DNA of 64,000 nucleotides from Cyanophora paradoxa CCMP329. Lineage: Eukaryota; Plantae; Glaucophyta. The notes beneath the pieces are model-generated. The model saw only the letters and a program-made list of their open reading frames with translations. It made no database searches and was not told the DNA's origin. The position numbers and the translations under genes are program-made. Location of the stretch: positions 434,001 through 498,000 of the forward strand of contig QPMI01000010.1 in assembly GCA_004431415.1 (NCBI GenBank), in the 5' to 3' direction. Numbering within the stretch: position 1 is the stretch's first letter; each line of letters opens with the position of its first letter. Of this stretch, positions 5,345 through 63,024 are shown in pieces.

Positions 5345-5416
5345 GTCGCTGTAGTATAGCGGTCAGTATACCTGCCTGTCACGCAGGTGACCCGGGTTCA
5401 ATTCCCGGCAGTGGCG
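5345..5416 (+). tRNA. trnD-GUC: tRNA-Asp (GUC)
   Basis: 72-nt cloverleaf: acceptor GTCGCTG/CAGTGGC, anticodon arm CCTGC-CT GTC AC-GCAGG, T-loop GTTCAATTC, followed by a TTTT Pol III terminator. Confidence 0.95.
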
Positions 5417-7459: not shown

Positions 7460-7531
7460 CGCCACTGCCGGGAATTGAACCCGGGTCACCTGCGTGACAG
7501 GCAGGTATACTGACCGCTATACTACAGCGAC
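7460..7531 (-). tRNA. trnD-GUC: tRNA-Asp (GUC), identical second copy
   Basis: Exact reverse complement of 5345-5416. Confidence 0.95.
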
Positions 7532-29502: not shown

Positions 29503-30453
29503 GGCCGCGCGCGCGCGTGGTTTCTGGATCCGGATCGCGGCGGGCTTCGCGTTATTTATCATTTCAGTGCTGTGTATACGTAGGTAGCTATGGCAGATGC
29601 GACGTTTCTTATCTCTTGCAAGTGCAGTCTCTAGATTTCTTGTCGTAGTTTGAATTTATGTCAGATTCGCTGAAACGATCCCGTTGAACCGGAATAGAAT
29701 TCAAATATAACGCAATATATATTTCAATTGCGATTGCACCTCACTAACTCACCAAAACTCGTACTCGATGTCGATAATACTCGCACATGAAATTTGGGCC
29801 CCCCGCCCTCTCTCTTCCCCGCCCCCCGGCTCCGGAGCCCCCACCCCCCCCCCCCCCCCCCACCCCCCCCACCCCCCACCCCCACCCCCACACACACACA
29901 CGCCACCCGGTCCCCGCCTTCCCCCCTTCCCCGGCGCCCCGGCCCCGGCACTTGGCTTCGGCCATCCTCCGCTTCGAATTCCAAATTCGGCCGTCCGGGA
30001 TCCCCATATATATGTCCTGCCAAAATCACTGCCAGGGCCAGCCTCGCTCATTTTAACGCTCTTCGAATTTCCGCTGCCACGCAACACGCTCTTCCGGATC
30101 CGCAATTACGCGCGAGCTTTATCAGTTTGTGAGCCGTGTGCGTGGCCAGGCCATGCCTAGGCCTCCTGCGGCTAGCGCTGCAGCAGCTCATGATCACGAT
30201 CACCGGCACTAGCAACACGGCAAATTCGAAAAGCTCGCAGCTGGATGACTCGCGATCGGATCGCGCGCGAGATGACCTGATCATGACCCGTCCTTTTCTG
30301 GCATCATATACGTGCATGTATCATAGTATACGTACCTGCTGACAGCTCGGAGCTCGAGGCGCCCGCGGCCGGTAACCGGTACCGTGATAATCGATATCGG
30401 ATCCGGCATATATCATCAAAGTTTATTTTGAAGCGAACCGGTGAAGGTCATGA

Positions 30454-33400
30454 TCACGCGCGGCGCGCGACGAGCAGAGAGGCGAGAAGCCCGGCAACGG
30501 GGCCCAGAATATTCATTGCGCCGAATTCGATCGACGCCGCGGTCGACAGGGCCGAGGAGCCGCCGGCGGCGGCGGTGTAGGCGCCGAGCTTGAGGGTGCG
30601 GGCGGCCACGGTCGCCTGCACGGCGTCGGCGAGCGCCTTGCCCGTCGCGTAGGCGCCGCCGCCGCCGAACGAGGCGGCGACGAGGAGGCCGCTGCCGGTG
30701 CAGGAGATGCCGGCGATGGCGACCTGCGAGCGCGAGACGGGGCCCTTGAGCGCGTTGACGGCGACGTACAGCGCCCCCTCGACCTGTCGACGTCGTTGTG
30801 AAGAGTAAAGCGTTAATGAAGAAGGTCAGAGTATACGTAAATTAATGCAGCTGTTGTGGATAATTCGCAGCCGCGCCAAATTAAAGGCGCACGTCAAGAA
30901 GGCCGGAGGGGAGGGAGGCCATGTACGACTCGCACTGGGCTTGGGTCGCCTCGAAGCGGATGGAGAGCGCCGCGGGGGTCGCCTGCACGGCCGCCGCCGC
31001 CGCGACGGGCGGCGTGTACGTGAACGTGCCCGGCGCGTACACCTTGACAACCGGGTCCGCGACGCCCGAGGCCTTCGCGCCGTTGACCTGCAGCGGAGAT
31101 TCAAATTCTAAATCATTATCAGAGCGATTGAAACTAAATTTAAGTCTATATTGTGCTCACGGTGACTTGGCCGGCGTTGACGGCCGTCTTGAGCGCCGTG
31201 AAGAGGGCGGAGGAGCCGACGGAGCCGGTCGTGCCGCCGGCGGTGATCTGGTCCCGCACGACGACGCCAAAGGCGCCCGTCGTGGCCAGAAGGCGGCGGG
31301 CGGCCTTGCGCCTGGGCACACAAATGAGAAAAGCATGCGGGAAATTTTGTATACGTAGAGTGTGACTGAGAAATTACACATAGGGATACCCCTGATCCAA
31401 GCCCTCCGGCCTTCGGCCTACAGGCTTGGATCAGGGGTATCCCTATGTGTGCGCGTTTCAGGTACTAGGGTAGTAAGCATTTATTTCAGGTCTTAGGGTA
31501 TTAATCATGTCTTTTTGGCACCAGTATGTTGGCCGCCTCTGGGGTATTGAACACATGAGTTTGGCATCAGCAGGGTGAATGGGGTGAACGGGTTGTTTGT
31601 ATATTTTCTTAGGAAAAATGCCTTCTCACGGGAATTTATACAAACAACCCGTTCACCCCGTTCACCCCGTTCACCCCGTTCACCCAGTTCACCCCGTTCA
31701 CCCTTACACCCTTTACACCCTTTACACCCTTTACACCCTTTACAATCTTAACAATCTTAACAATCCTTAACAACCTTTACAGATGTCTCATCCTGCCCTC
31801 CTCCTTGATCTCGTGGAAATTGCTGGAGCTTCATAGGTCTCCTTTGAATTCGAGAAATCTCTATACCACCTTACTGCCTCTGCTCCCCTGCTAATCTCTC
31901 TGTTCCCGCCACCCTCAATCTCTCCAACTCTCTCCCTTGTTTCTTCTTCTTCCCTGCTCTGTCCTCCAATAATGGTTTATCTGGCACGTTTGGCGCCCTC
32001 TCAATCCCCTCTCTGGCCAAAAGTCGCTCTGTTCTGGCCTCTTTCTTTGCCTCTTCAATGACATTTATTGATGGCGCCTCCAAGAACTCCACGGTTTCCA
32101 CTTTCTGTAATTCGTAGTGGGCATAAAGTCGATCTATTAGTTTGCCAGAAATGTCCCTTAGTTTAAATTTGAACCCCTCCACTCCTTCTATTGTGAATAT
32201 TTCGCGGCTCCAATTATTCCCTTGTTTGGCAAATGGGCTCTTCTCTATTTTAGTTCTCACGTGGCTCCCTGCTGGATAGTCTTTTAGATATTCAATTGAC
32301 TTCATGAATTTCTCGTTTTCTTTTCCGAGTATTAGAGGAACATGTACCTCTGTGGTCTCTGCTGGTTTCATCCCCGTTGCTGAGTGGATGGTATTATTGT
32401 AGTTGTAGGCAAAATCTTGGAGCTTGTCGAAAAACTTTACAGTATTATTCGCTATACAATACGAGTTAATTAGCTTCTTTATTGTGCGATTAAAGGCTTC
32501 TATTCGGCCTTGGCTATTGTGATCTCCAACCTGCGAAACTTGGTGCTCAATCATCTGGGTTTCTAAATGGTCTTTAAATACCTTGTTCAGGAATTCGCTC
32601 CCAGCATCACTTTGTATCTTCACAATTGGACGAGGGACTTGTTGCTCAAGCTCCTTAAACGCGTTCAATGTGCTTTCTGCTGTCTTTCCCCTCATTGGAA
32701 TAATAAAGCCCAGTCTGGTGGTGTTTTCTACAGCTGTGAGGAACGTGTTGTAGCCTTGATTCTGTTTGCTGTATGAGGGAAAGAAGACTAAATCAATAGC
32801 GAATGTATCGAGTGGCTGTCTTATGGGGATATAGGCAGTCTTCTTGGCTGATGGGAGGGGTTTATTTATTTGGTTGATTTCTTGGGCATCATAGAATCTA
32901 CGGATTGTCTTTCTTGGCACATCTGGAAGCTCTTTGGCCAATGAAGCAAGGCCTTTAAATCCTACCTTGGTGTCATAGAATGTCCTTGCTAAGGGATCCA
33001 AGTGGGGCACAGCAATTGCTGTTGGGATGTCTGCTGGAACTAATGCTTTGAGGTCACTCTTTTTCTGAATGCGACCCCCTCTCTCCTCTTGAGGGATTGG
33101 GATTGGCAATATACTCACATCGTACTCTGTTTGTCTGCGTGTGATCTTTGATGACATCTATATTGGGATTAGAAAGCAATCTTTGACATCTTCACATTGA
33201 AGGTCTCATTTTCAAGCTTCTTTTGGACAGTCATTTCGATTTGCTTGGGTTTTTGGTGGAGCACATGGTCTTTATAATCTTGGAAAGACAGATCTGTTTG
33301 AATGGTCTCCTTACAAACACCTGCCAGCTTTTTTATTTCCTCATCATCTGTTTTAATGCTGTAGCATTTCGGCCTTACCCCAGCATATTCAATAATGGTT

Positions 33401-36400
33401 CTGCCCTCAAACTCATCTTTGAACTTGCCAAGCTCTGTGGGGTGGGTGTCAATGTCTTGTAGGTCTTTTGCTATAGTTTTCGAATTTATTTGAAGGCAAA
33501 GCGAATCTGTATCAGTAAAAAGCAGTTTACAGTCTGGCCATTTCCGCTTGATGGTGTTATAATAATAATCAAATAGCCGCAGCTTGGCAAGATCTAAAAC
33601 AACTGCCCCAATTGCTATGGGCTTATCTAACTTGACATTTTTCTGTAGCATTTCGAAGGCTACTGCTGAATCGCTTAGTCTTGTTTCTGCTTTGAGTAGG
33701 GGCGATCTGGCGTATTTCATAAATTGCTTTTCGTTGGTGGCAATCTTGACATTAGACCTTCCTCTCACTTTCTCAATGGTTTTGCCAAAAAGGCTATTGT
33801 TCATGATCTTAAAGAAGTCCTTTTCGGGTTTGGAAGGGGCTGCTTTGCGGTTTTGGGCATTGGATTCGACGTAAGGCTTCATAAAGGCAGCCTGAGTAAA
33901 TGTTAGCACCCTGTGGATTTTGGTGACCTTTAAGCCTTGCGCTACCATGAATTGGAGCAAAGGTTTCGACACCACATAATTACAAATGTCTTCGCAGGCT
34001 GCTTGTAGTCCATCCTCTGCTCTCTTGATAACAAGAGGCAGTTCTTTGTGGAGTTGATGGAGGTGCTGGGGATAATGGATGTCAACTTCTAAGATGGCCC
34101 CCTCTGCTGATGACAGGTCGTAATTTGAGGGTTCTGGGTGCCATTGGAAATTCGAGAGGGGTAGCTTTTGGGATAGGGCATATCCATATAGGTTATTGGC
34201 ATCCAAATATATAATGTGGCTGTCCCTTTCCTTTTTGGCATATTTATGATTCATAATCGAAAGGCCTCCCCTGATCATGCCTTCAACCATGTTGTACATA
34301 TCAAGGTTGGAAAGAAGCTCGATTTTAGGCTTGGTAATAGATAGCATGCTGTCCCACGAAAGCCCTGGACTTGAGACATAGTGGGCAGCATCCATCCCAA
34401 AAGTTTTGTGTGATTTCTGGCGGAAAAGCTGGAACTTTTCCATTAATCCTTCCACGTTCTGGACGCCATAATCAATAAAGTTTTTGATGTCAATGAATTT
34501 AAAGCAACCCCAAGTGATCGACATGTAGTTGTCAAACGATTTTGCGAGGACTTCCACCCTTTTTTCGGGATTTAAGGCGACTGCCTTGAATATCTGCGTT
34601 CCAGATAGGGACAGATCATTGGTCACTATGGGAATCTTGGTGAGATTGCTGGTGCGTCTGTGGAGATTACATTTGCGACAGGCTGAGCCTACAAAATCGC
34701 CTGTTTGATGGTCATGATCCCTCACTTTATAGTTGTCTTGGGAAAACGTACCCTCACAGATGTAGCAGGTTTTAGCAAGGTAATGGGTACGTTTCTGCTC
34801 TTTGGTCAGTGACATTGGGATGTTGGTAAATAGGGCTTTGAATAGCTCTGGGGCTGTGCTGTCGAGGGTACTCAGGAGCTCAAAGATGTTGGAGTGGGTT
34901 TTAGTGAGTACTACTCTATTATTATGAAGAGCTGTCAGTGAGATTGATTTGATCTTGAACATACCAGAAATATCTGTTTCATAATCGAAATAGCAATAGG
35001 CAATCACGGGGAGGAATACAGTCTTTGAGAGATGTTTAAGACCAAATTCAATGAATGTGGGTTGTTTTGGGGTCTCTCCAGCACTTGTCTTCCAATCCAC
35101 ACAACGTTTGCTTTGAATGTGGGATTGAAGCTTCTCCTCAGTCTTGAAGTGGTTGGAACAGGTTTTACAGAAATGGAGTCGCTGCTTATCATTTTTAGCT
35201 AAGACTCTGGACATGCTGAATATTGTGGTATAATGACTGTTACCATTTTCGTCTGTAATTAGCAGCAGATCCACTTGGTGTTTCCTGTTCCTTGAGGAGC
35301 TGTTGTGGAGTAGATTAATTTCTTCTGTAGAGTTAGAGGGGTCGTAAATATTAACAGAGATTGCTGGATTGAGATTTTCAAAGAGATCAATAGTATCAGC
35401 ATCCGCCTTCACAGGAAACTCAATGCCCTCGAAATTTAGTTCTTTTTTGAACCACCTCCTGTATTGGGAAGTCTCATTGCGCTTGTGGCTATTTACTTCG
35501 TCCTTGTGAATATAGCTCAGGATGGAGTATTCAAAGCACCTATTGTCCTTGTTATTAACATTGACAATGGCGCGTTTATTCTTCAGCCACTCAGGCAATG
35601 GAATAAATGCTCCTCCTGAGATTGGCTTAAAGGAGAGAACAATGACCCTGAGGGCTTGGATGCTATCTAATCTGTAGCTATCTGTGACATTAATTTGCGA
35701 CTGGCATTCCTTGGCAAGTTTAGCTGTCTCTTTTGTGAGGATTCGAGATCTTGTCATGATAGCATAGGTGCTGTAAATGTGCTTGGTAATAAAATCTCTC
35801 GAATTATTGGCCTTAGAAAAGCGACAGACAAATGTAAAGCGAGTTTTAATCGACATTTGTGAATTGATGGCATCTTGGAGCCTTGTGTGGAGTTCCTCAG
35901 AGTAGGTGTCTATAAACTCTTGAGTGGTCAGGATCTGGTGCTGAGCTCTGATTGTGAAATCGATGTATTTATTGTTCAGAGCGCGATGTTCATTAATTAG
36001 AGCTGTGTAGTCTTCACCTCTAACCTGTGTGGTCGTGGTCTGTTCGACTTGAATGTGGCCAAGGCGATCAGTCTCATCAAGGGCGTCAATTTTCCCTAAT
36101 AGCTCTCGATTGAGAGCTTGAAGCCCCTTGAGCTTCTTGTTGGTTTGGCTTATGTATGATTCATATTCGCTTTCACTGATGGAGTGGTTCGCAAGGAGGA
36201 AGGCCAGATTCCCGAGAATCTTGTCCTGAAGCTCCTTAATTTGGTAGTGGCTGGGGCGGGGCATGGTTGTGGGGTTGTACTTATATATAGGTACGAAAAT
36301 AATCTTTAAATGCTGCGTAGAATTTGGAAGATTAATTTGTGTGTCTATTGTAGACGAAAAATGGAAACCTTTGATCAGGATTTGGTTGAAACCAAGTTTG

Positions 36401-39400
36401 ACGACGTGGACTCCATGAAATATTTCTACGTTCCACTTGGAGGGGCCAAAGGAAGGGGCCAGTATATGATATGTGATATCGAAGATGCTCCTACAATGAT
36501 GAGATATAACTGGTGTTTGGATGGGGATGGTTATGCTAAGACAAGTGTAAGGCGAGATGAAGGGAAATGGTTGGTATTGTATGCTCATCGATTGATAATG
36601 ACAAATGAACTGAAAGAAGGGTTGGTTGTCGACCATGTGAGCAGAGATAAATTGGACAACAGGAAGTGTAATCTGAGGGTATGCTATCCTTTTGAGAATA
36701 ATAGGAATAGGAGTAAAAGCAGCAATACAAGCAGTCAATATAAAGGTGTTTCTTTCAAGAAACGAGAGGGTAAATGGTGTGCTCAGATTACAATTAATGA
36801 CAAAAGGCTCTCTTTGGGGTATTACAAAAATGAAGCCTTAGCCGCTCATGCCTACAATCAGGCGGCAATTGAACACTATGGAGACTTTGCCGCTCTCAAT
36901 GAGATTAAGCCCGAGGCACAAAATACCGAATAGAATCAGCATTTAAAGAATAAAATCTTACCTATAGTGTAGAGGAACAAGAATTAAAATGGCATACCAT
37001 GCGGCATCTCAAATTGCCTATGTGACTCGTCGCCGTGCTCAAGATCCTGCTTTCCGTGAGAGAATGAAGCTTAATAGTCTGAGGAGCAGATACTACAAAG
37101 GTGACCCCCTTCCCTGTGTGAGGTACCTCTTTGATGAAAGGAGGTGCCTTGTTGGCAGACCAAGGACAGTGGTGTATTGAGGGGGTCGCGAAAAATTGAT
37201 TGTTTTATTTAATGATTCTATAAACTACTTAAGGACAAGGGTGTCAATAGAATCATCAAATTATTTTCTCACCCTATTATAGAATGGCTCCCTCATTCAG
37301 CTCAATCAACCCCAATGGCAACACCTTCATTCTCACTGAGCGCATCCACAGAGGTAACCTCAAATGGGTGGTGGAGAACTTTGATAATCTCCAGTTTCGC
37401 CCTGAAACTGACAAGACCCAAATGAGAGCCATCATCCAGAAATTACTTTCTATCGTCGATCATGAGGGCTACCACACCTGTAAATATAAGCAGGTGAAGC
37501 ACAACACTGGTAGGTACTTTGTGGATGGAAAAACCCCCAGCCTTCAAAGCATCTGTAGGGAAATTCGCCACACCATTTCCAAGGACTACTACTATGACAT
37601 TGACATTGTGAACTGCCACCCTGTCCTGCTTGTTCAGTATTGTGAGAAACATTCAATTGCCACTCCTCAGCTGAACAAATATGTTCAGAGCAGGGATGAA
37701 ATTCTTGATGATCTCTGTGAGGTCACCCAGAAATCCAAGGCTGATGTCAAGCGCAGCATTCTGGCAGTCATCAATGGTGGGCAAGGGGCTGACCTCTCTA
37801 GCCTACTTATCAATCACAAGTACTTCAGTGATCTCAAAGAGGAAATGGCCAAAGTCCATCAATTCATTGGTGGGATTGAGAAGCAGCGCTTCTATGCTAT
37901 TGCTAAGCGCAAGAAAGAAAGCAATGTACTTGGTTCCACCATGAATATGGTACTATGTGACCTTGAGAATCAGGTGTTAATGGCTGCTTGTGAGTACTTC
38001 AGTGCTCTTAAGCTCCATGTGGATGTCTTGGTCTTTGATGGATGTATGATCAGGAAAGACCCCAAAGTATTGAGTGCTTTGGAAGAGGTTAGTGATTATG
38101 TGGAGGGGAAAACTGGCTACAGGGTGACTTTTGTGGAAAAACCTATGACCAGTGGGTTTGATGTACCTGAATGTCAAGCTTCCCTTTCCAACATTGATTA
38201 CAAGACTGCTCCAATTCCTACCAACTGTGATTACATGGAGATCAAGCCCTACATGGATGCCAGACTTGCTCACATTATGAAGCCTGGGTTTGTCTTGTCT
38301 TGGAATGATCATACCAAGAAGTATGACACAACCAGCTTCAAAAGCTTGGCTGAGGATGTATACCCTCACATTCAGTACACAGAGTTTGACCTAATGTCTA
38401 TGAAGATGGAGCCTCATAACTTCATCAAAAAGTGGGCGAAAGATGAGACTGCCACAAGGTATGATTACTTGGACTTCCTCCCACCTCCTGTAAAATCTGC
38501 TTCCACCACTGCCAAGGTGTTTAATGCCTATGCTGGTATGAAAGGTGAGCTTATGGATGTGAGTGAAATGGATATTCCTCCTGATGTAACTGAGGAAGAT
38601 GTTAGCCCATTCCTTGACCACATGATGATTCTCAGTGGTGAAGATGCTTCTACATTCAATTACATACTGAAGTACTTTGCCCACATTATTCAGAGACCTG
38701 GGGAGTTGAATGGGATTTCAATCATCTTCAAGGGAAAGCAAGGAGTGGGGAAGAACATCATATTGGATTGGTTTCAAAATGAAATACTGGGTGGGGACTT
38801 GGCTTTCAGCACAGCCAACCCACTGAAGGACTTATTTGGAAACTTTGCCCACCAGCGAAAGCACAAACTACTTATCACTGTGAATGAGGCAAGTGGCAAA
38901 GACACCTTCACAAACAGTGATGCCCTCAAGGACATGATCACTGCTGAGAAAATTGTAATTGAGGCTAAGTATGTCAATTCTCATGAGGTGAGGAATTTCG
39001 CCAGGATCATATTTACTACCAACAACACCCTACCAATCAAAGTGGAGGCTGGAGATAGAAGGTTTGTGATTGTGGAGGTGAGTGACAAGAAAAAGGGTGA
39101 CATGAAATATTTCAAGGCACTGGGTAATTGGCTGAAGGAGCCAAGAAACCAGCACATGGTATTCCTCTACTTGAAAAACAAGGTGGATGTCACAGACGTG
39201 AACTGGTATGCTGACAGGCCAATGACCAACAGCTACTACCTTGCCCAACAAGCAAGTGTTCCTGTCACTGCCTTGTTCACCAAGGATTTGGTAGACACCC
39301 AAAAGATTACCAAGGATACACCAAGGACTGAGAACAGGCAACAGGTGTGGGAGTGGTTCCAGCAGTTCATTACAATTAATAAATTCAAGAATGAATTCAG

Positions 39401-42400
39401 CTCAAGGAAGTTCTACATTGAGATGGCTGGACTGGAATATGTGAGGCCTACCAAGTATTGTGGAAGGGAGTGTTATGTCTTCAAGTGGGATGAGATGATG
39501 GCTTACTTCAAGAGCTGTGGGCTGTTGGTGGAGTTTTTGGAAGAGGAGGAGGATTAGGGGGGGCTCATGATAGGTTTTTGGGGGGGGTTCAAGACGTCTG
39601 GGGGACCTTCTGGGGGACCTTCATTTTTTACTTTCTGGTTGTTTTATGACCAGAAATGGTAATAATGTATACACATAGGGGGGTTAGGGGACCTAGGGGG
39701 GGATATATAACTCCTATAGCCTCCAACTCTTTTTCATTTTTAAGCAACAAGCCAGAAATATATAGAGTTGTGAGAGAATACCCCCCTACCCACCCAACAA
39801 CCCCCTAATCCCCCCTAGCCCCCACCTTCCAGACTGAGAATGGTAACCTAAACAACAAGACGTCAGTTGGCAGAACCCCCCCCTAACTTCCCCTTGAGTC
39901 CCCTAACCCCCCCAAATCTACCCCACTTGCTTGTAGGCCACCAGCACTTAAGGACATCTTCATATAGCATGGTGAAGAGCCCAAGCCCCCAAGTGCCCAC
40001 CAAAAATTGATTCTTGACACCCCCAACCCCCCAAACAGTCTTACATAAGCCCACCAGTACCACCATGGACTCAGATAGCAGCTATGATGACATCCCCCTT
40101 GAGGACATGGTTGAACTGTGGGAGGCAGTCAGGCAGCAGTATTATGATGAGTATAGGAAGTCCCCCCAAGACATCAACCCCCAGACCTGTAAAGAATTGC
40201 GCAGATTGATGAAGGCATATGAGAACATCATATGTGATAACTATGGCATGGAGGGGTATGCCCTACTCCACAAAGCAAATTTTAGCTGGAGAAAGTCATG
40301 AAAATTGTAAGTACCCCATCTCAAAATCTCCGATTCATCCCTTGAAAATATCACCGTTGGATTCCTCGTAAAAAGTAGATATTTATAGACCCCAATATCA
40401 TAGCCCTAAGATGATCTGGTGACGAGCTACGAATATTTTCAGGTTCGCATATACCATATATATATACCATAATGATATATGTATATGATATATCATAATG
40501 TCACATGACATATATATATATCATAGCTTTTCGGACTCGCCGCGTCATGGCGATCACGGCGCTATAGGTTTTACCGAAACTTGTTTTTTTTTATATATAT
40601 AATATACATATATGAGCCGGCCTACCGTTGACCAGTATACGTAGTCACGCCAGCCAGCCTACCGTAGACCAGTAGGCACGCCAGCCAGCCTACCGTAGAC
40701 CAGTAGGCACGCCAGCCAGCCTACCGTAGACCAGTAGGCACGCCAGCCAGCCTACCGTAGACCAGTAGGCACGCCAGCCAGCCTACCGTAGACCAGTAGG
40801 CACGCCAGCCGGCCTACCGTAGACCAGTAGGCAAGCCCGCCAGCCTACCAGAGAGCGGTAGGCGCTTATTTCCTTATAGAACTCTATAAGAACATTTATA
40901 TTCCATTTAATTGGAGCCACCTAAGAAGCTCATATAATTAAATCGTATAAGACCATATAAGATTTTGGATAAGATTTATATAATCTATTACACTTCTATG
41001 TGAGCGACAATAAGGAGTCTAATAAGGATGGGTTAAATGTGGCGACTCTTGAAAGATTTCTTATAAGAACCTTATAGAGATTGCGCGGCGCAATCTAGAA
41101 GTTGCGCACAGTATGGGCTGCGCAAGCCTGAGATTGCTCCTTGTATGGCCGCGCAACGCTGAGATTGCTCCTTGTATGGCCGCGCAACGCTGAGATTGCT
41201 CCTTGTATGGCCGCGCAACGCTGAGATTGCGCAGCTATTTCCTTATAGAGCTCTATAAGAATGTTTCTAAAACTTTCAATTAGAGCCACTTAAGGAACTT
41301 CAAACGCGAATATCTCGGCACCAGATTGGCCGTTTTGAGCGCTCTTTTTTTTCCTGTGAAGCTCTCATCACGCTCTACGCAGAGCCGCCCCTTTCGCATT
41401 TTTATGCTGCCTAAAAGTAGATTATTATGACAACTCCCATCCATACTCGCCTTGTAGAGGTCTCCTTTGAACTCTCATATTTGGCGCTGACGTCTCCAAG
41501 CTCAGAACTGAGTAACTCCATACATCGCCTCTCTATAGAACTGTACAACCTTGGTCATCGAATAGCCCCCCTGTCTCCACATATCAAAGCAGCTTTACAA
41601 AAAATATCAAACGACCTTCTAATGCTTGGAAACGAGATAAATACCCTCCCTGATGGCAGATAATGTGCTCAATGTAGACGGTTTCCTTGGTACTCATCCC
41701 AAGCGCTGCTTACAGCCTGAGCAAATTGCTCCCCTGTCACCTCTTCAATACTCTCCAAGCTTACCCTTTGCCCCTCAGTTGACCCTGTCCTCAGCACCAC
41801 ATCATAGGGAGACCCACTCCTGGATCCACTTGGGGAGGAAGATCCAATGCTGACGTCAATAGTAGTATCACAACAGCTACATTTATAATTGCTGGTCACA
41901 TGTATATGAAACATATCCAGCAATTGTTGGAGCCATTGCCACATCTTACAAGTAACAGGACAAAATAACTCAGTTGCTGCTCTCAGTGGTTAAAAAGTAT
42001 TTAGCCGGCCTCCCCATTGGCCTCACCACTTCTTTTTGTGCCCTTCGGCGATAATATGATGCCAAGGCTTGTTGTTTCTTAACCTCTCTATATGCTGGGT
42101 CTTCCCTGTATCTTTTTTGGTTTGCTAAAGCGCTCTTAATATAACTCTCACTTACAGGACTATCAACGGTGAACTCAACCAGACTGATGGTATCATCCAT
42201 TTATAATAGAAAAAACGTTTATTTTTTCTCAAAGCCAAACCCGTCGTTTATACACTGTGGGGGCTACGCCTTTGTCCACCTCTGCCTTTGTAGCACCTGG
42301 CTCAATAGTCCCCTTTTGGGTCTTTGTTTTCATTTCATCAACAGCTTGCTCATCGATTTGGGTCTCTTTCTTGGCAATAAACTGTTTATCTGGAATCCCA

Positions 42401-57400: not shown

Positions 57401-60053
57401 ATGGTTTAAGGGTTGGTGGAATTATTGGAGCGCCTTTATTAGTAAATGATCAACCCAATCCAGATGATGTGAATACAAGAATCAGGACATATGTCCCGGG
57501 AATGAATGAGCCTTACATTATCAAAATCAACACAATCATTATCAACCTCACCGTCGGCAACGCCGACTGCAAGAACTCGTGCGCGACAATTTTGCATTCC
57601 TGATTTAATGTGAATTTCACACATAGGGATACCCCTGATCCAAGCCTGTAGAAATCACTATAGATATACTGAGACGTTGCCTGCTGATATTTACGCATTA
57701 TGTAGAAGAACAGATGGAGCAAGACCCCGTATTACTGTCCAAGTAGTCCCAGTAGATAATTTCGGACTTGCTTTCCATTCACTGCCACTTCTTGACACAC
57801 AAGATGACCAATATATTATAAGAGCTACCCAGCAAGGGGCTTACACAGTGATTATGTATGCTGAAAGGAATGATGAAATTGCCAGAGGAAATAGATTTGG
57901 TCAATATCTAACCACAAATTTATACAATCCCATTGGAGGAAGTGATCCTTTGCCTTAAATCTCCAGCAATCGTATTGTTTTTTCTATTCTATTGGTAATC
58001 AAAATGCTTGCCAAAGGTTACCATGTGATGCTTGATTTCCAATTCAGCCAACCAATTAGAGACCATGTGGAGCTCTCTAAATGGCTCATGAATGTCAGTG
58101 AAGACATCATCAAGAAATATGGAATACAGGTTGTCCACAAACATGCTGAGATTTTTGATGGCACTAAATCACCCCCTGGATTCGCTCAGGTATTATTATT
58201 GGATGAAAGCCATTGCTCTGCTCATTGCTACAGTGATCAAGGCATGTTGGCAATAGATATATTCAGCTGTGGAAAACAGGCAGAAAGGAATACAAGTTTA
58301 ATTGCTTTTGAGCTGGAGGAGGAGATAAACAAATATGCTATTGGTTTTGGGGCAGTGATCAAAAAGAGATTACACCACGAGAAGAGGAGGTTTGAGGTTT
58401 AAGAGAGGGTGTTGAGGGTGTTGAGAGTGTTGAGGGTTATATGTAAAAATTCCCGTGACAGAGAATTTTCCTAAGAAAGTTTACAAACAACCCTCAACAC
58501 CCTCAACACCCTCAACACCCCCTGCTGGTGCCGAAAAGACATATTTAATACCCTAAGACCTAAAATAGATGCTTACTACCCTAGTGCTTAAAACGCGCAC
58601 ACATAGGGATACCCCTGATCCAAGCCTGTAGGCCGAAGGCCGGAGGGCTTGGATCAGGGGTATCCCTATGTGTGAAATTCACATTAAATCAGGAATGCAA
58701 AATTGTCGCGCACGAGTTCTTGCAGTCGGCGTTGCCGACGGTGATCATCGAGTCGTCGAACTTGTCCTTGTCGGAGCGGCCGTTGTTGAGCGTGTCAAGG
58801 AGGCTCTTGCGCTCCTTGTTCGGGTTGAACGAGTGCTTCCAATCTTTGCACTGCGCATGCCAAATTAAATTTGAAGACTTCAGCCTCTCACGGTTCGGCG
58901 GTCTCATTTTAGTTTATTTAAAAACGAGCATGAGTGTTCTAAATTAAATTTGATTCGACCGTAATAGTGATCATCATCATCATCGGATGTAATAAAATAT
59001 TCTATCAAGACGCATACCTTGCTCTCGGTGTCGAAGCTCGTGGAGACGGTGGTGGACTGCTCGGTCACGTTCGACTGCACGGCCACCGAAGACTGCGGGC
59101 CGCTGACGCCGGCCGACATCGCCGAGTCCGGCGTGGCGGCAGCGGCGGTCGCGTTCGAGTTCGAGTTCGACGCCGGAGCGGCCGCGGGGGTCGGCGTCGG
59201 CGCCGCGGCGGCCGCGGCCGCGGGGCTCGGCGTGGCGCCTGCTGACGTCGACGATGTCGAATTCGAAGTCGAGGGCGGCGCCGAGCTCGAGGGAGAGGGC
59301 GTCGGCGAAGGCGTCGAGGCACTGGCTGCTGCGGCCTGCGGAGTCGGAGTCGCAGCCGCGGCTTCCGGGACAGCGCTCGGGCTCGGAGATGCGCTCGGGC
59401 TGGGGCTCGGCGAGGCGCTCGGGCTGGGGCTCGGAGATGCGCTGGGGCTTGGGCTGGGGGTGGGACTGGGCGAAGGCGTAGACGTCGGCCCGGCGGGCAG
59501 AATGAAATTGCTCGTATTCTTCCCCGTGTTAGCGCCGTTTGATGCAATAGTGGTGCCAGTTACATCCCGGTAGGCCGTCGACACGCAGCTGATGTTGAAT
59601 TCCTGCGTGTAAGGCCCAGATATGTTCTGCGCATGCGTCCCAAAATAACGTTAGAATAGCCAGTCCTGTATACGTACGTATACATCGTGTACGTAGGGAT
59701 CTTCTCACCACAGTTGTGGTCGTGCTTCCGATTTGGATACACGAACCCGTCTGAGCCACGACGACGAGGCCGGAGTCGTATGGCCCTGCAGGATCTTTGA
59801 CCCCCGTCGGGCTGGAAACGCTGCAGACAGTCTTCACGCTGCAGGCTTTGGATTCCGGGTTGGTGTTGTCAGCCCCCTGCCACGAGACCGTGAGAACGAT
59901 GGCGCTGTATGTCAGGGCCGTCGCCGTCTGGCTCACTGCGTACGCCAAGCGATGATGATCATGAGCTCGCGAATTCGGAGCTCGCATAATATATAAGCTT
60001 GAGGCCTTGAGAAAGAGTGTGCGGGCGGTGGCCAACGCACCTGTCGTGCCCAT
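30454..60053 (-). CDS. Host Ser/Pro/Thr/Ala-rich putative cell-surface (possibly GPI-anchored) protein; one intron (31312-58713) carries the viral element
   Basis: Exons at approx. 60053-60041, 59935-59710, 59620-59018, 58851-58714, 31311-31161, 31087-30893 and 30783-30454. The checked joins are in frame (...ADCKNS|RKAARRLLATTG..., GLLD|VEGALY). (SP)n stalk, RRLL motif, hydrophobic C-terminus GAMNILGPVAGLLASLLVARRA*. Confidence 0.75.
31376..31450. repeat. Left terminal inverted repeat, itself a hairpin (28-bp perfect stem, 19-nt asymmetric loop)
   Basis: ACACATAGGGATACCCCTGATCCAAGCC - CTCCGGCCTTCGGCCTACA - GGCTTGGATCAGGGGTATCCCTATGTGT. Confidence 0.97.
31581..31780. repeat. Left subterminal stem-loop (23-bp stem, 31581-31603/31637-31659) running into 9-10-bp tandem repeats (CCGTTCACC, CCTTTACAC, AATCTTAAC)
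   Basis: Read directly from the sequence. Confidence 0.85.
31871..33157 (-). CDS. Retroviral-type (rve, DDE) integrase of the Polinton/Maverick kind
   Basis: FAIDLVFF (D), IQSDAGSEF (D), SQGRIEAFNRTIK (E), YNNTIHSATGMKP; consistent with the 6-bp TSD. Confidence 0.95.
   Translation of the reverse strand: MSSKITRRQTEYDVSILPIPIPQEERGGRIQKKSDLKALVPADIPTAIAVPHLDPLARTFYDTKVGFKGLASLAKELPDVPRKTIRRFYDAQEINQINKPLPSAKKTAYIPIRQPLDTFAIDLVFFPSYSKQNQGYNTFLTAVENTTRLGFIIPMRGKTAESTLNAFKELEQQVPRPIVKIQSDAGSEFLNKVFKDHLETQMIEHQVSQVGDHNSQGRIEAFNRTIKKLINSYCIANNTVKFFDKLQDFAYNYNNTIHSATGMKPAETTEVHVPLILGKENEKFMKSIEYLKDYPAGSHVRTKIEKSPFAKQGNNWSREIFTIEGVEGFKFKLRDISGKLIDRLYAHYELQKVETVEFLEAPSINVIEEAKKEARTERLLAREGIERAPNVPDKPLLEDRAGKKKKQGRELERLRVAGTERLAGEQRQ
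33169..36264 (-). CDS. polB: Protein-primed family B DNA polymerase (~1031 aa, probable start MPRPSHY at 36264) with C2H2 finger and endonuclease-VII-like Zn insert
   Basis: Motif A YLDANNLYGYA, motif B KIMNNSLFGK, motif C FTDTDS, RPKCYS, KLAGV; N-terminal NKDNRCFEYSIL; FCKTCSNHFKTEEKLQSH; CYIC...RDHDHQTG...ACRKCN. Confidence 0.95.
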   Translation of the reverse strand: MPRPSHYQIKELQDKILGNLAFLLANHSISESEYESYISQTNKKLKGLQALNRELLGKIDALDETDRLGHIQVEQTTTTQVRGEDYTALINEHRALNNKYIDFTIRAQHQILTTQEFIDTYSEELHTRLQDAINSQMSIKTRFTFVCRFSKANNSRDFITKHIYSTYAIMTRSRILTKETAKLAKECQSQINVTDSYRLDSIQALRVIVLSFKPISGGAFIPLPEWLKNKRAIVNVNNKDNRCFEYSILSYIHKDEVNSHKRNETSQYRRWFKKELNFEGIEFPVKADADTIDLFENLNPAISVNIYDPSNSTEEINLLHNSSSRNRKHQVDLLLITDENGNSHYTTIFSMSRVLAKNDKQRLHFCKTCSNHFKTEEKLQSHIQSKRCVDWKTSAGETPKQPTFIEFGLKHLSKTVFLPVIAYCYFDYETDISGMFKIKSISLTALHNNRVVLTKTHSNIFELLSTLDSTAPELFKALFTNIPMSLTKEQKRTHYLAKTCYICEGTFSQDNYKVRDHDHQTGDFVGSACRKCNLHRRTSNLTKIPIVTNDLSLSGTQIFKAVALNPEKRVEVLAKSFDNYMSITWGCFKFIDIKNFIDYGVQNVEGLMEKFQLFRQKSHKTFGMDAAHYVSSPGLSWDSMLSITKPKIELLSNLDMYNMVEGMIRGGLSIMNHKYAKKERDSHIIYLDANNLYGYALSQKLPLSNFQWHPEPSNYDLSSAEGAILEVDIHYPQHLHQLHKELPLVIKRAEDGLQAACEDICNYVVSKPLLQFMVAQGLKVTKIHRVLTFTQAAFMKPYVESNAQNRKAAPSKPEKDFFKIMNNSLFGKTIEKVRGRSNVKIATNEKQFMKYARSPLLKAETRLSDSAVAFEMLQKNVKLDKPIAIGAVVLDLAKLRLFDYYYNTIKRKWPDCKLLFTDTDSLCLQINSKTIAKDLQDIDTHPTELGKFKDEFEGRTIIEYAGVRPKCYSIKTDDEEIKKLAGVCKETIQTDLSFQDYKDHVLHQKPKQIEMTVQKKLENETFNVKMSKIAF
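36361..36933 (+). CDS. HNH-AP2 homing endonuclease
   Basis: AHRLIM...VVDHVSRDKLDNRKCNLR...ENNRN (HNH) followed by SQYKGVSF...KWCAQI...LGYY...AAHAYNQAAIEHYGDFAALN (AP2). Confidence 0.93.
   Translation: METFDQDLVETKFDDVDSMKYFYVPLGGAKGRGQYMICDIEDAPTMMRYNWCLDGDGYAKTSVRRDEGKWLVLYAHRLIMTNELKEGLVVDHVSRDKLDNRKCNLRVCYPFENNRNRSKSSNTSSQYKGVSFKKREGKWCAQITINDKRLSLGYYKNEALAAHAYNQAAIEHYGDFAALNEIKPEAQNTE
36989..37180 (+). CDS. Small basic protein (63 aa), probable DNA binder; paralog of 41970-42200
   Basis: ATG in A-rich context; DPAFRE...SRYY...GRPR resembles DPAYRE...ASYY...GRPAK. Confidence 0.6.
   Translation: MAYHAASQIAYVTRRRAQDPAFRERMKLNSLRSRYYKGDPLPCVRYLFDERRCLVGRPRTVVY
37192..37199 (+). promoter_or_regulatory. 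AAAATTGA octamer (mimivirus-type early promoter motif) upstream of the primase-helicase
   Basis: Exact motif in the intergenic region, ~85 bp before ATG 37284. Confidence 0.55.
37284..39557 (+). CDS. Primase-helicase: PolA-like primase-polymerase (TVpol) fused to D5-like superfamily-3 helicase
   Basis: N-terminal YDIDIVNCHP / KRSILAVINGG / VLVFDGCMI (PolA motifs A/B/C-like); C-terminal Walker A GKQGVGKN, Walker B LITVNEA, motif C IIFTTNN, DRRF. Confidence 0.88.
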   Translation: MAPSFSSINPNGNTFILTERIHRGNLKWVVENFDNLQFRPETDKTQMRAIIQKLLSIVDHEGYHTCKYKQVKHNTGRYFVDGKTPSLQSICREIRHTISKDYYYDIDIVNCHPVLLVQYCEKHSIATPQLNKYVQSRDEILDDLCEVTQKSKADVKRSILAVINGGQGADLSSLLINHKYFSDLKEEMAKVHQFIGGIEKQRFYAIAKRKKESNVLGSTMNMVLCDLENQVLMAACEYFSALKLHVDVLVFDGCMIRKDPKVLSALEEVSDYVEGKTGYRVTFVEKPMTSGFDVPECQASLSNIDYKTAPIPTNCDYMEIKPYMDARLAHIMKPGFVLSWNDHTKKYDTTSFKSLAEDVYPHIQYTEFDLMSMKMEPHNFIKKWAKDETATRYDYLDFLPPPVKSASTTAKVFNAYAGMKGELMDVSEMDIPPDVTEEDVSPFLDHMMILSGEDASTFNYILKYFAHIIQRPGELNGISIIFKGKQGVGKNIILDWFQNEILGGDLAFSTANPLKDLFGNFAHQRKHKLLITVNEASGKDTFTNSDALKDMITAEKIVIEAKYVNSHEVRNFARIIFTTNNTLPIKVEAGDRRFVIVEVSDKKKGDMKYFKALGNWLKEPRNQHMVFLYLKNKVDVTDVNWYADRPMTNSYYLAQQASVPVTALFTKDLVDTQKITKDTPRTENRQQVWEWFQQFITINKFKNEFSSRKFYIEMAGLEYVRPTKYCGRECYVFKWDEMMAYFKSCGLLVEFLEEEED
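40003..40010 (+). promoter_or_regulatory. Second AAAATTGA octamer, upstream of small ORF 40065-40301
   Basis: Exact motif ~55 bp before an ATG in CACCATGG context. Confidence 0.5.
40065..40301 (+). CDS. Hypothetical viral protein (78 aa)
   Basis: ATG in good context, codon style like the upstream helicase, helical acidic/aromatic sequence MDSDSSYDDIPLEDMVELWEAV... Confidence 0.6.
   Translation: MDSDSSYDDIPLEDMVELWEAVRQQYYDEYRKSPQDINPQTCKELRRLMKAYENIICDNYGMEGYALLHKANFSWRKS
40649..40865. repeat. Tandem array A: 7 x 31 bp (GCCAGCCAGCCTACCGTAGACCAGTAGGCAC), each unit with a GCCTAC/GTAGGC stem
   Basis: Five perfect units, two diverged units, plus a partial unit at ~40616. Confidence 0.95.
41128..41230. 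repeat. Tandem array B: 3.3 x 31 bp (CTGAGATTGCTCCTTGTATGGCCGCGCAACG)
   Basis: Three perfect units and a partial unit. Confidence 0.95.
41427..41663 (+). CDS. Hypothetical helical protein (78 aa)
   Basis: ATG ORF with an internal helical repeat (SFELSYL / SIELYNL / SNDLLML); abuts the convergent ORF. Confidence 0.45.
   Translation: MTTPIHTRLVEVSFELSYLALTSPSSELSNSIHRLSIELYNLGHRIAPLSPHIKAALQKISNDLLMLGNEINTLPDGR
41669..41944 (-). CDS. Hypothetical viral protein (91 aa) with CSCC motif
   Basis: ATG ORF at the end of the minus-strand structural block, short AT-rich spacer upstream. Confidence 0.55.
   Translation of the reverse strand: MWQWLQQLLDMFHIHVTSNYKCSCCDTTIDVSIGSSSPSGSRSGSPYDVVLRTGSTEGQRVSLESIEEVTGEQFAQAVSSAWDEYQGNRLH
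41970..42200 (-). CDS. Small basic protein (76 aa) with GRP (AT-hook-like) motif
   Basis: Lys/Arg-rich; similar to 36989-37180. Confidence 0.65.
   Translation of the reverse strand: MDDTISLVEFTVDSPVSESYIKSALANQKRYREDPAYREVKKQQALASYYRRRAQKEVVRPMGRPAKYFLTTESSN
42229..42963 (-). CDS. Hypothetical protein (244 aa), coiled-coil, N-terminal PPKRK (NLS-like); possible virion core protein
   Basis: Long ATG ORF co-oriented directly downstream of the ATPase. Confidence 0.75.
   Translation of the reverse strand: MPPKRKIGIPAGAVGYSGGGNNGSINTDPLKFNGMNEVKPSQQQEDPLNAAYEESFDDKAPQTSTSDQLNISPEASKMKAVGEGARRIIGAADDKGLGLQDLSLTRKGEGLSKESDKVIQSMAGEVTYKTAPTQNIHRVPKAQWDEMTAKLKDLEAKSSALEQYVTEKRERSKLKEMLRKEVFKMGITGIPDKQFIAKKETQIDEQAVDEMKTKTQKGTIEPGATKAEVDKGVAPTVYKRRVWL
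42992..43774 (-). CDS. A32-like (FtsK/HerA) genome packaging ATPase
   Basis: PFRVLAIGKSATGKS (Walker A), LCVVLDDL (Walker B), RGRHSKISIICITQ, IRVNSDY. Confidence 0.95.
   Translation of the reverse strand: MGDLDEFNAGEMINPPFRVLAIGKSATGKSEAVKYWLKQLHDAKKIDVVLVVSGTSFNHFWDKVATLQLGKWDAPYIAKLLDERQEKIEKGEPVNQLCVVLDDLIDNEIVDLTRDKIIGSLYSRGRHSKISIICITQKLRKVSSTIRVNSDYAMFLSAANRKELEAIEEEYNIMRDKDVFYKMFEEYVHSYQFLIWSSADYSVKYFVDKADLVKDFPFPRFHRKPKKKEDELKPPEKEEGRKEVKSQVHSSKLMRYKRGL
43828..45198 (-). CDS. Double jelly-roll major capsid protein (456 aa)
   Basis: Size, beta-rich pattern, motifs GNRISFKLPR...LAFDLPA, LVQRLEITYG, IPVPW...LPLGAL, VEINGQRL, SGYVDL; lies between ATPase and penton. Confidence 0.85.
   Translation of the reverse strand: MDITSTLQRLSLKEALTTPEEAKAFFLDNSLMLGLESKSKPVLVVVNPSNTFENSVGNRISFKLPRYNFCGKLELAFDLPAITFGDADLVRNGYTRPVGALVQRLEITYGSYTYHIPSDFLAHFPLVYYSEDQLAKKKRSMGMLHGIPAHGTNRLGGSFFVEIPVPWLNHYLPLGALSGEMVVTVWFKDVGKGYVETSYGGRTLPKAGDTAIDGDKDDGLGVAPAESVLAHVGQNITTFNLGAPNVEIKITSPRLYMYAVNVSDELFATVIEKVKTTGMAIPALDIGFVDVSDMKAKGLAQPNRVNLSQISGLVYALLVSVRDNANVDKANGSHSVLKTYSNSKDITFTVEINGQRLYATEPIPLLKGAELIADVFKCSNMDKVADRYVLSGLPFCLDGEKAIRNVAQSGYVDLTNSSSSFLTLYMPTDKAIDVNVRALMHSFIIVDKDGLRRINL
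45253..46284 (-). CDS. Minor capsid protein (penton) 1
   Basis: IEVSS...SSFIARLPNIYENVRAVRLVSAEFYNS N-terminus; LFVRVKEL; LSTFSVDIVNAINEPIDFEG..VHLTFEI C-terminus. Confidence 0.82.
   Translation of the reverse strand: MNIDKRRMPVDYIEVSSFNTISGDGPTSSFIARLPNIYENVRAVRLVSAEFYNSIPMVSGETQPGDITIDNSFSIFWSEEFDGAGIDGIPTTRPAAGFEPWKQLIISRKKPIQSHQQLVNVINAKFDDREPEPSIRCKWDESLKRIIFHSEKPFYLAFSVAGNPNQKTIQKLLSAARLLGLDPGRYGNSPIQSQVYNALTDGIFTGERVNGIISSFEPEKTRDSVLFVRVKELGDLVQCGDGLLTGYFHKIVVPDKDYGEHVVYNSTESHPLYKYYNKKMGLSTFSVDIVNAINEPIDFEGQPVHLTFEIRYGEEPAGDPVYEYFKMRMSQSHPTYPIIASFG
46293..47228 (+). CDS. Minor capsid protein (penton) 2
   Basis: VNVDSRDR...SYRVAL...VIYAEIPNS N-terminus; YLYLHVKEL; LTVEFKDYFGDIIDMNGIDNSFQLEF C-terminus. 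Confidence 0.85.
   Translation: MNRLVNVDSRDRSQGETENSYRVALTTPVERPRECRVIYAEIPNSIYNSVGTDHLIVEFTYQDSSVTETVTYNISPLPTGYINQGHFGVTQPYNYGLNYVFYEETIAGKTVAFEFKLFYNPTTYKVEFYSNRFFRIRASNKRIGKLLGLSSTEFQSSFMDDNSPSQSPYRPENFLKYDGKPITLNHPLWGTTFSGSRLSSTPLRYVYYSNKMADMNAEQYLYLHVKELAPFASRHNIVPKSQPQNQGAILRLQLSKDIGGYVYYNGEHGEFIRINDRHLVVRELTVEFKDYFGDIIDMNGIDNSFQLEFIE
47218..48773 (-). CDS. Patatin-like phospholipase fused to F5/8 type C (discoidin) domain, split by a 1-nt frameshift near 48056-48058 (~518 aa if repaired)
   Basis: LSGGGARG, GTSTG, ARATSAAPTYF, IDGA. The patatin C-terminal part (WGILSW...PLINMLM, YYRL, LDDTS) continues in the second frame, then AFTASS...EYLQVAF...STNGINW...KYVRIYP...MRVDFTG. Confidence 0.85.
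48817..56141 (+). CDS. Giant fibre/adhesin-like protein (ORFs 48817-52395 + 52392-56141; ~2441 aa if one gene) with four LamG/ConA-like modules, HxH repeats, 13/26-aa shaft repeats and a phage-fibre-type C-terminal domain
   Basis: Four YLP(L/K/I)(T/S)GGTIT motifs, each preceding a module that ends like E...(F/Y)(N/T)RAL...E....R.YL..KYG. The second module straddles the ORF junction. C-terminus F..KPPV...IHWTAYG. Confidence 0.75.
53118..53740 (+). repeat. Coding tandem repeats: ~6 x 39 bp (PLTSSNVVQEWIA) then ~5 x 78 bp (PKADTETVNSQIALLTSSNTVQGWLI)
   Basis: Visible at both DNA and protein level. Confidence 0.9.
56181..57026 (+). CDS. Putative fibre-associated structural protein (281 aa), paralog A
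   Basis: Intact ORF; shares GLESTE, RVKELRADKNSGVVKTTQLLVTNANF and GYRNDE with the next gene. Confidence 0.75.
   Translation: MGEYNRVQLPVYALGSPAIHFRQHEVSDEIRGLESTERANSGNAFDKNSMIRVKELRADKNSGVVKTTQLLVTNANFQSANGQPDAYGVDIKAFEFDNTRAAAVIRSGGAIIGGGCRVSGMLGSSAAFNDFPDTLPEHADNPQRIRMFLPCGDSPYAFGIIRANVNTQNATQPQGIAGPWKLANQLLPKAIYSMCRSQNGGLEGYTFFVQAVGHGGRGWITRNPATQPNSFDFWASEVGGYDILIFGYRNDEAAWAVANCINPDSQVSNFYNEPFPNDPIP
57046..57958 (+). pseudogene. Paralog B, interrupted by a ~104-bp insertion at 57548-57651
   Basis: The 5' ORF matches the N-half of paralog A. After the insertion, LPADIYALCR...TVQVV...YAERNDE...DPLP matches the C-half of paralog A in a shifted frame. Confidence 0.85.
57548..57651 (-). repeat. 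Inverted copy of the right virus-host junction (71 bp host flank 58674-58744 + 28-bp terminal arm + TGTAG)
   Basis: 57548-57646 is the exact reverse complement of 58646-58744. Confidence 0.95.
58004..58402 (+). CDS. speD: S-adenosylmethionine decarboxylase proenzyme family (short prokaryotic-type, pyruvoyl-dependent), 132 aa
   Basis: GYHVMLDF, F...PPGFAQVLLLDESHCSAHCY (E|SH self-cleavage site), AIDIFSCG. Confidence 0.88.
   Translation: MLAKGYHVMLDFQFSQPIRDHVELSKWLMNVSEDIIKKYGIQVVHKHAEIFDGTKSPPGFAQVLLLDESHCSAHCYSDQGMLAIDIFSCGKQAERNTSLIAFELEEEINKYAIGFGAVIKKRLHHEKRRFEV
58407..58520. repeat. Right subterminal stem-loop (41-bp stem built from GAGGGTGTT 9-mers, 3 mismatches)
   Basis: 58407-58447 is complementary to 58480-58520; the loop matches the left subterminal loop. 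Confidence 0.85.
58599..58673. repeat. Right terminal inverted repeat/hairpin
   Basis: Exact reverse complement of 31376-31450. Imperfect TIR similarity continues inward (31451-~31525 vs ~58524-58598), then patchily to ~31660/58407. Confidence 0.97.
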
Positions 60054-62788: not shown

Positions 62789-62951
62789 GCTAGGCACTGC
62801 GGAATCCGGATCCCGCCGGAGCCGGAATTCGGAATCCGGATTCCGGATCCGCAATGACCTAACGGGCCAGTAGTAACGGCTTGCGAAACAAAAACGAAGC
62901 GACACAGGGGGCGAGAAAGAAAAAAAAGCGGAATCCAGTTGGCGAAAAGAA

Positions 62952-63024
62952 CGATCCCGGCGGGACTTGAACCCGCAATCTCTAGCTCCGGAGGCTAGCG
63001 CCTTATCCATTTGGCCACAGGACC
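62952..63024 (-). tRNA. trnR-CCG: tRNA-Arg (CCG)
   Basis: GGTCCTGTGGCCAAATGGATAAGGCGCTAGCCTCCGGAGCTAGAGATTGCGGGTTCAAGTCCCGCCGGGATCG; anticodon arm CTAGC-CT CCG GA-GCTAG; downstream T-runs. Confidence 0.93.

Follow-up and report, generated by a model that had tools for sequence, protein, structure and literature searches.

A Polinton/Maverick-type provirus within a 98-nt intron of a Cyanophora paradoxa gene, likely inactivating that gene copy

We analysed a stretch of 64,000 nucleotides from the glaucophyte alga Cyanophora paradoxa CCMP329 (GenBank assembly GCA_004431415.1, contig QPMI01000010.1, positions 434,001 to 498,000 of the forward strand). This whole stretch is called the window below, and all coordinates are counted from its first letter. 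Within the window, a Polinton/Maverick-type provirus interrupts a gene of seven exons that belongs to a small family of paralogous Ser/Pro-rich proteins. The provirus lies in intron 4, which is AT-rich and was 98 nt long, and it has likely inactivated that copy of the gene; we put the probability of this reading at roughly 0.6. The gene is read from the minus strand, and "sense", "upstream" and "downstream" refer to its direction. An earlier reading of the same letters (the sequence-only reading) had proposed that the insertion either knocks out a surface-protein gene or is spliced out, hiding the provirus. The features discussed are collected in Table 1.

The element occupies positions 31376-58673 (27,298 bp), and its borders could be placed to the exact base. 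The GC content by position was ~42% over 31.4-58.7 kb compared to ~67% in the rest of the window (66.8% for the host DNA). Each end carries a terminal inverted repeat (TIR) of 149 nt. The two TIRs are 95% identical, with the outer 83 nt being the same in both, and the tip of each is palindromic in itself, consisting of a 28-nt arm, a 19-nt loop and a second 28-nt arm. The element is flanked by a perfect 6-bp target-site duplication (TSD), GAAATT. An insertion of this form would result from a staggered cut at an AT-rich site made by the DDE integrase of the element itself. Searches with the TIR tip gave 0 exact matches in viral_contigs and 0 in metagenome_contigs. Immediately inside each TIR, at 58404-58523 and 31573-31667, there is a subterminal array of short G-rich repeats, which are GGGTGTTGA-like at one end and GGGTGAAYG-like at the other, with small inverted repeats flanking a ~22-nt spacer. 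They may act as origins or as promoters.

Read on the minus strand, the upstream exon closes with ...GACTGCAAGAACTC / ...AAGAACTC; the donor GTGCGC comes next and has its initial G at 58713. Past the element, the intron ends in ...TGTGCCCAG with the acceptor CCCAG at 31312, after which the next exon starts with GCGCAAGGCC. Both splice sites are intact, the element being 40 nt from the donor and 64 nt from the acceptor. Removal of the element and one copy of the TSD rebuilds a pre-insertion intron of 98 nt (34 + 6 + 58) with a GC content of 40.8%, and joining of the exons in silico gives ...GNADCKNSRKAARRLLATTG..., by which the reading frame is restored. The present intron measures 27,402 nt from donor to acceptor. 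The remaining introns of the gene are 73-167 nt long; for C. paradoxa as a whole, the available text of PMC6704402 gives a mean intron length of 86 bp, 9.2 introns per gene and a genome GC content of 67.6%. The sequence-only reading had named the same letters at 58713 and 31312 as exon end, donor and acceptor, and had described an AT-rich intron of 98 bp with the frame restored, a present intron of 27.4 kb and a genome of ~100-bp introns, and each of these descriptions was borne out.

In this window, only 1.25% of 98-nt segments of host DNA are as AT-rich as the target intron and 4.8% have a GC content of ≤50%. The available text of PMC6704402 gives 25,831 genes with 9.2 introns of 86 bp each in 99.94 Mb; by our own arithmetic on these figures, introns make up roughly one fifth of the C. 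paradoxa genome, and an intronic landing is therefore unsurprising in itself. The AT-richness of the target is unusual, yet a single event cannot establish an insertion preference.

Comparison with paralogous proteins shows that the flanks on both sides of the element are one gene. A search for the upstream exon with a 45-aa query found proteins for all four candidates (P0001-P0004), and the downstream exon, searched for in 233 candidates, was matched by P0002, P0003 and P0008. The paralogs of the host gene are P0002, P0003 and P0004; the last of these, a short and odd model, does not reach the junction and is uninformative on whether the flanks are one gene. P0002 (415 aa) and P0003 (295 aa) contain both flanking exons contiguously: at the junction, ...ADCKN(A/S) or ...ADCKSS runs directly into RKA(T/A)RRLLATTGAFGVVVRDQ..., which is the downstream exon. 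The locus itself has a Ser codon divided between the two exons at this point, where P0002 shows Ala and, close by, Thr. By tblastn, P0002 aligned to the window in collinear blocks that span the element (59470-59018, 58877-58713, 31322-31155, 31087-30893 and 30780-30472). The seven-exon model has an open frame for 553 aa and all six of its introns are GT-AG; its C-terminal part is identical to P0002 at 239 of 268 positions and to P0003 at 201 of 274. Because the paralogs are contiguous and collinear and the 553-aa model is open, we take the flanks as one gene. This agrees with the earlier joining of the left and right flanking exons, and P0002 and P0003 contradict an origin of the two sides from different genes.

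The available text of PMC6704402 describes Augustus/BRAKER1 gene models on 'tig' contigs for C. paradoxa, and the names of the proteins found here, contig-style 'tig...' with a gene number, match it. In the public annotation, this one gene (30454-31335 and 58690-60053) appears as two partial models. The 5' model of the locus itself is P0001 (131 aa, 100% identical); it reads past the donor and stops in the intron (...NSCATILHS). P0008 (208 aa) is the 3' model of the locus, and its start ATG is inside the remainder of the intron. The two models, g133 and g132, are on the same contig name. Taken as annotated, they would be two separate genes, P0001 ending and P0008 starting in the intron, and the in-frame join of the flanks would be coincidental. 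We consider this extremely unlikely. Both parts are held together in P0002 and P0003 and align collinearly over the element, the ends that P0001 and P0008 have at the element come from intron letters and are therefore ad hoc, and the model numbers are consecutive, so that the intervening 27 kb were left without a called gene.

The protein encoded by the seven-exon gene is hydrophobic at the N-terminus and in the C-terminal tail and contains a long Ser/Pro/Ala/Thr stretch; a Pfam search with it found no family. The earlier name "surface-protein gene" is in keeping with this composition and gained no Pfam family; as it is based on composition, we infer a surface protein here and treat the label as putative.

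As read evidence, we used Logan contigs of the DNA runs X1 and X2. The left junction was bridged in both runs. In X2, a 133-letter contig matched 31271-31400 with 0 differences at a depth of 70.5, its neighbours having depths of 76.9-91.3; in X1, a 150-letter contig bridged the junction at a depth of 20.4 (neighbours, 16.6-21.5). No loose end at 31375, marking an empty site, or at 31311, marking a spliced form, was present among the eight listed for X1 and X2 (at least one further exists). This fits an insertion that is present in essentially all genome copies of the X1 and X2 cultures. The two runs may come from the same culture as the assembly, and the junction contigs are therefore not independent proof.

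The element family is multi-copy, with a depth of ~350-3000 compared to ~30-100 for host DNA. Other copies diverge from this one by ~2.5-4% in the right-hand kilobase (7/222, 10/397 and 6/156-161 letters). In such a family, the placement of the element could in principle be an assembly chimera, a multi-copy repeat having been wrongly threaded into the locus, and the odd copy of the right junction that lies inverted at 57548-57651 could point to a faulty assembly. We give this explanation next to no credence, as the TSD is perfect, the flanks rejoin exactly into one intron and one frame, and the left junction is bridged, at single-copy depth, by contigs of X1 and X2, two runs that possibly share their culture with the assembly.

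Two other contig observations concern the exons upstream of the element. A contig in X2 and X10 shares exon 4 and the first seven letters of the intron and diverges at 58707. It is probably from a paralog with an intron at the same position, and such an origin would fit a conserved exon-intron boundary. A joint in X1 that skips 161 nt (58854-59016) was considered as a splice signal and rejected: its ends are not GT-AG on the gene strand, and X1 contigs elsewhere keep their introns. This joint is probably from a paralog as well.

The inverted copy of the right junction is located 1 kb inside the element. Positions 57548-57646 are an inverted copy of 58646-58744, 100% complementary over 99 nt. 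The copy takes in the final 31 nt of exon 4, the donor and 34 nt of intron, together with the TSD and the repeat tip. Since there is host sequence inside it, the copy arose after integration. Other copies of the element, represented by X1 contigs, have ~35 other letters between 57548 and 57651. To judge from these letters, a viral stretch of ~35 nt was replaced by ~102 nt for which the junction close by served as template, the strand having been switched within the terminal palindrome; the change looks like a templated repair insertion. It may also be an assembly artefact. The length difference suggests, by frame arithmetic, that the open reading frames (ORFs) 57046-57603 and 57677-57958 would be a single gene of ~281 aa in intact copies; in the present copy, the last 17 residues of the first half-ORF derive from the host.

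In a read-through RNA, the two copies of the junction are predicted to form a perfect 99-bp duplex (-202 kcal/mol) that encloses the donor. This raises the reading that the provirus-bearing intron is a built-in hairpin trigger and that the locus is like a transposon trap, not a simple knock-out. The end of exon 4, the donor and the repeat tip would fold onto the 99-nt inverted copy 1 kb downstream, and ~10 kb of antisense would add to it. Double-stranded RNA arising in this way would be a source for small-RNA silencing, both of the multi-copy virus family, which shares the repeat tip, and of the paralogous host genes. We consider this reading very unlikely.

Disruption of the gene copy, tolerated via its paralogs, is in our judgement likelier than efficient splicing over the element. 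The present intron is ~300 times the usual intron length, and the sense strand of the element contains 20 AATAAA, 20 ATTAAA, 39 donor-like and 50 acceptor-like motifs. Transcripts from the host promoter would mostly end or be mis-spliced within the 27.4 kb of foreign DNA, and correct splicing over the element would be inefficient at best. The public models P0001 and P0008, which halt at the element on both sides, were also counted for disruption. Loss of this gene copy could be tolerated because paralogs exist.

Several points weigh against disruption. The consequence for the gene is something that we infer from the DNA itself, and no contig bridging the right junction was found among the matches listed. 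The argument from the public gene models carries little weight, since an intron of 27 kb is rarely called by gene finders. Neither splice site is damaged, and the three downstream exons (676 nt) contain no stop or frameshift, which is what a recent insertion or a gene that is still working would lead one to expect. The GC content of the element, 42%, compares with 31-54% for the host introns, so that a splicing system that reads GC contrast might treat the element as an intron. Finally, the genome of C. paradoxa is more likely haploid according to the available text of PMC6704402, and a fixed insertion in a probably haploid genome fits a tolerated, spliced insertion equally with a dispensable gene.

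These observations would favour an alternative in which the whole provirus is spliced out as a single 27.4-kb intron, giving a normal protein and leaving the provirus transcriptionally 'hidden' in the pre-mRNA. The GT donor and the AG acceptor match the type seen in the other introns, the spliced exons are in frame, the element has a GC content like that of host introns, and the insertion is seemingly fixed, at single-copy depth. We nevertheless regard this outcome as unlikely: the length is far outside that of the introns in this gene and of the mean in the available text of PMC6704402, the element has many poly(A)-like and splice-like motifs on the sense strand, and the donor lies within the 99-nt perfect inverted repeat. 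On balance, inactivation of this copy by the provirus remains the reading that we prefer.

Table 1. Coordinates of the provirus, its repeats and genes, and the exons of the host gene in the window.
Feature	Position	Strand	Evidence or remark
Exon 7, stop codon and hydrophobic C-terminal tail	30454-30783	-	
Exon 6	30893-31087	-	P0002 residues 243-307, 94% identity
Exon 5, first past the element	31161-31311	-	P0002 94%, P0003 90%, P0008 100% over 58% of query
Present intron 4, 27,402 nt (old 98-nt intron, element and one TSD)	31312-58713	-	
TSD, left copy, plus-strand GAAATT	31370-31375	.	X1 and X2 contigs cross 31375/31376
Polinton/Maverick-type provirus, 27,298 bp, 42% GC	31376-58673	.	
Left TIR, tip palindrome 31376-31450	31376-31524	.	
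DDE (rve-type) integrase, 428 aa, sense	31871-33157	-	Pfam rve E=9.9e-6, 26.2 bits (below cut-off 32.6)
1189-aa ORF, candidate protein-primed DNA polymerase with endonuclease VII insert, sense	33169-36738	-	Endonuclease_7 24.2 bits (above cut-off 23.6)
Primase-helicase (DUF5906/VapE-like), antisense	37284-39557	+	DUF5906 E=7.1e-20
A32-type packaging ATPase, sense	42992-43774	-	Pox_A32 42.3 bits (above cut-off 22.8)
Candidate major capsid protein, 456 aa, sense	43828-45198	-	Atlas 0.98 to viral clusters, Capsid_N/Capsid_NCLDV in 12-18% of members
Two giant ORFs of 1192 aa and 1257 aa, with stretches resembling tail fibres and lectins, antisense	48817-56141	+	
Inverted copy of right junction	57548-57651	.	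Splits viral ORF (57046-57603 / 57677-57958)
Right TIR, same palindromic tip 58599-58673	58525-58673	.	
TSD, right copy, plus-strand GAAATT	58674-58679	.	
Exon 4, last before the element	58714-58850	-	4/4 candidate proteins match, 93-100% identity
Exon 3, Ser/Pro/Ala/Thr-rich low-complexity	59018-59626	-	Aligned: P0002 residues 42-146, P0001 residues 3-78
Exon 2, hydrophobic N-terminal region	59709-59935	-	Own model without paralog support
Exon 1, ATG and 10 nt	60041-60053	-	Own model, least certain part; N-terminus without paralog support

Polinton/Maverick elements are recognised by TIRs, a 6-bp TSD, an rve-type integrase, an A32/FtsK-type ATPase, a protein-primed family B DNA polymerase (pPolB), a double jelly-roll capsid protein, a maturation cysteine protease and a penton protein. 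The present element shares the TIRs, the 6-bp TSD, the rve-type integrase and the A32-type ATPase, and has candidates for the pPolB and the capsid. It fits the Polinton/Maverick type, with two of the defining genes, pPolB and capsid, as leads only. It differs in that its pPolB and major capsid protein (MCP) are without confirmation by a family model and that a maturation protease and a penton went unrecognised. It further differs in having an additional primase-helicase, a patatin-like lipase, an AdoMet-decarboxylase-like ORF and two fibre-like ORFs of >1100 aa. An HNH-AP2 ORF and an F5/8 type C ORF are also present, and the AdoMet-decarboxylase-like ORF is on the plus strand.

The integrase ORF matched a PHROG transposase (1.2e-12) and an IS481-type transposase model (6.2e-21, below the cut-off of that model). 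On these matches the fold family is clear, with the curated cut-offs unreached. The 1189-aa ORF was placed by Atlas, with a score of 0.97, in clusters that have DNA_pol_B_2 in 27-40% of their members, often together with Endonuclease_7, and it was unmatched by Pfam DNA_pol_B_2 even at E≤10. This ORF also has a C2H2 zinc finger, and the HNH-AP2 ORF (36310-36933, opposite strand) overlaps its 5' end. The endonuclease VII and HNH-AP2 parts at 33169-36933 are homing-endonuclease-like passengers of the replication module.

For the capsid candidate, an AlphaFold model built from three sequences had a mean pLDDT of 35.8 and was unusable. A PDB sequence search with it gave no match, and an IMG/VR search found no relatives. 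The family is very small: among 1.84 billion cluster representatives there were only two true relatives, of which a protein of the same proteome source shares 59% identity and a second, encoded on a Logan contig, 37%. A profile search found no further members. The ORFs beside the ATPase and the capsid candidate, 42229-42963 and 45253-46284, had no family or PDB matches. PDB sequence searches with four element ORFs gave no matches or noise only. The earlier gene identities thus fared differently: the integrase and the A32 ATPase have the support of family models, and the pPolB and MCP are language-model leads only.

The 17 listed ORFs of the element cover 10,380 nt in sense and 13,284 nt in antisense to the host gene. 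It had been proposed that host transcription would read the MCP, ATPase, pPolB and integrase in sense. These four ORFs are indeed on the minus strand, like the host gene, but the listed ORFs amount to 13.3 kb on the plus strand compared to 10.4 kb on the minus strand. Among those on the plus strand are the primase-helicase and the two fibre-like giants. A read-through transcript would therefore run antisense for its first ~10 kb.

Two further observations concern the make-up of the element. The ~2.7 kb at 39560-42230 have no ORF of ≥100 aa on either strand, unlike the remainder of the element, and may be decayed genes or non-coding DNA. Contigs of X1, X2 and X10 that reach 57960 run into subterminal-repeat-like letters and not into the AdoMet-decarboxylase-like ORF (57992-58402). 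As these contigs continue otherwise, this ORF seems to be accessory and missing from some copies of the family.

In the host DNA around the gene, two tRNA-Asp(GTC) genes are present in opposite orientation, 2 kb apart, at 5345-5417 (+) and 7459-7531 (-). A tRNA-Arg(CCG) gene at 62951-63025 (-) is located ~2.9 kb upstream of the disrupted gene. Downstream of the gene, the host DNA has long poly-G and GGGGT-like tracts, in minus-strand reading, at 27890-27960, 28690-28740 and 29830-29900.

Proviruses inside introns are familiar from vertebrates, in which sense copies of intronic endogenous retroviruses tend toward premature polyadenylation or aberrant splicing and are selected against. The present case is alike in having a provirus inside an intron, and differs in that the provirus is a DNA virus-like element with genes on both strands, in a host with tiny introns. 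A literature search on the splicing of intronic polintons gave only retrovirus papers among the matches listed.

Among protists, the endogenous mavirus-like elements (EMALEs) of Cafeteria burkhardae offer a comparison. According to the available text of Hackl et al. (2021, eLife, PMC8547959), 15 of their integration sites are in predicted host genes, 13 being exonic and 2 intronic, and the insertions are possibly gene-disrupting. Like the present element, EMALEs are AT-rich integrated virus-like elements of ~20-30 kb with TIRs and a short TSD in a GC-rich protist genome. They differ in host and element family, and their TSDs are mostly 3-5 bp compared to 6 bp here. In the available part of the same paper, GAAATT is absent from all 33 listed TSDs (0/33), no listed element has a length of 27,298 bp, and splicing over an inserted EMALE is not addressed. 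An origin from the Cafeteria EMALEs was rejected on the TSDs and lengths, and the protein names and genome statistics likewise indicate a different host.

Polinton-like viruses (PLVs) of glaucophytes, including C. paradoxa, are already catalogued in the available part of PMC12220804. There, discoidin (F5/8 type C) domains are reported mainly from the PLVs of two groups, Rhizaria (n=23) and Glaucocystophyceae (n=11); fibre proteins like those of phage tails are also described. The present element likewise has an F5/8 type C ORF and fibre-like ORFs. The contig name had no match in the available supplement rows of PMC12220804, and host-intron insertion is not discussed in its available text.

At the locus described here, the landing of a large DNA provirus in an intron of ~100 nt can be followed to the base, in an alga that is gene-dense and probably haploid. 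Virus-like elements in the genes and introns of protist hosts are already documented; what is gained here is one more instance and a locus that lends itself to tests, but no new principle. The case also illustrates the damage that such insertions do to annotation, in which a single gene has been turned into two partial models and a 27-kb provirus is left without any gene model. If splicing over the element were true, the locus would inform both the limit to which intron-definition splicing can be stretched and the cost-free persistence of a provirus.

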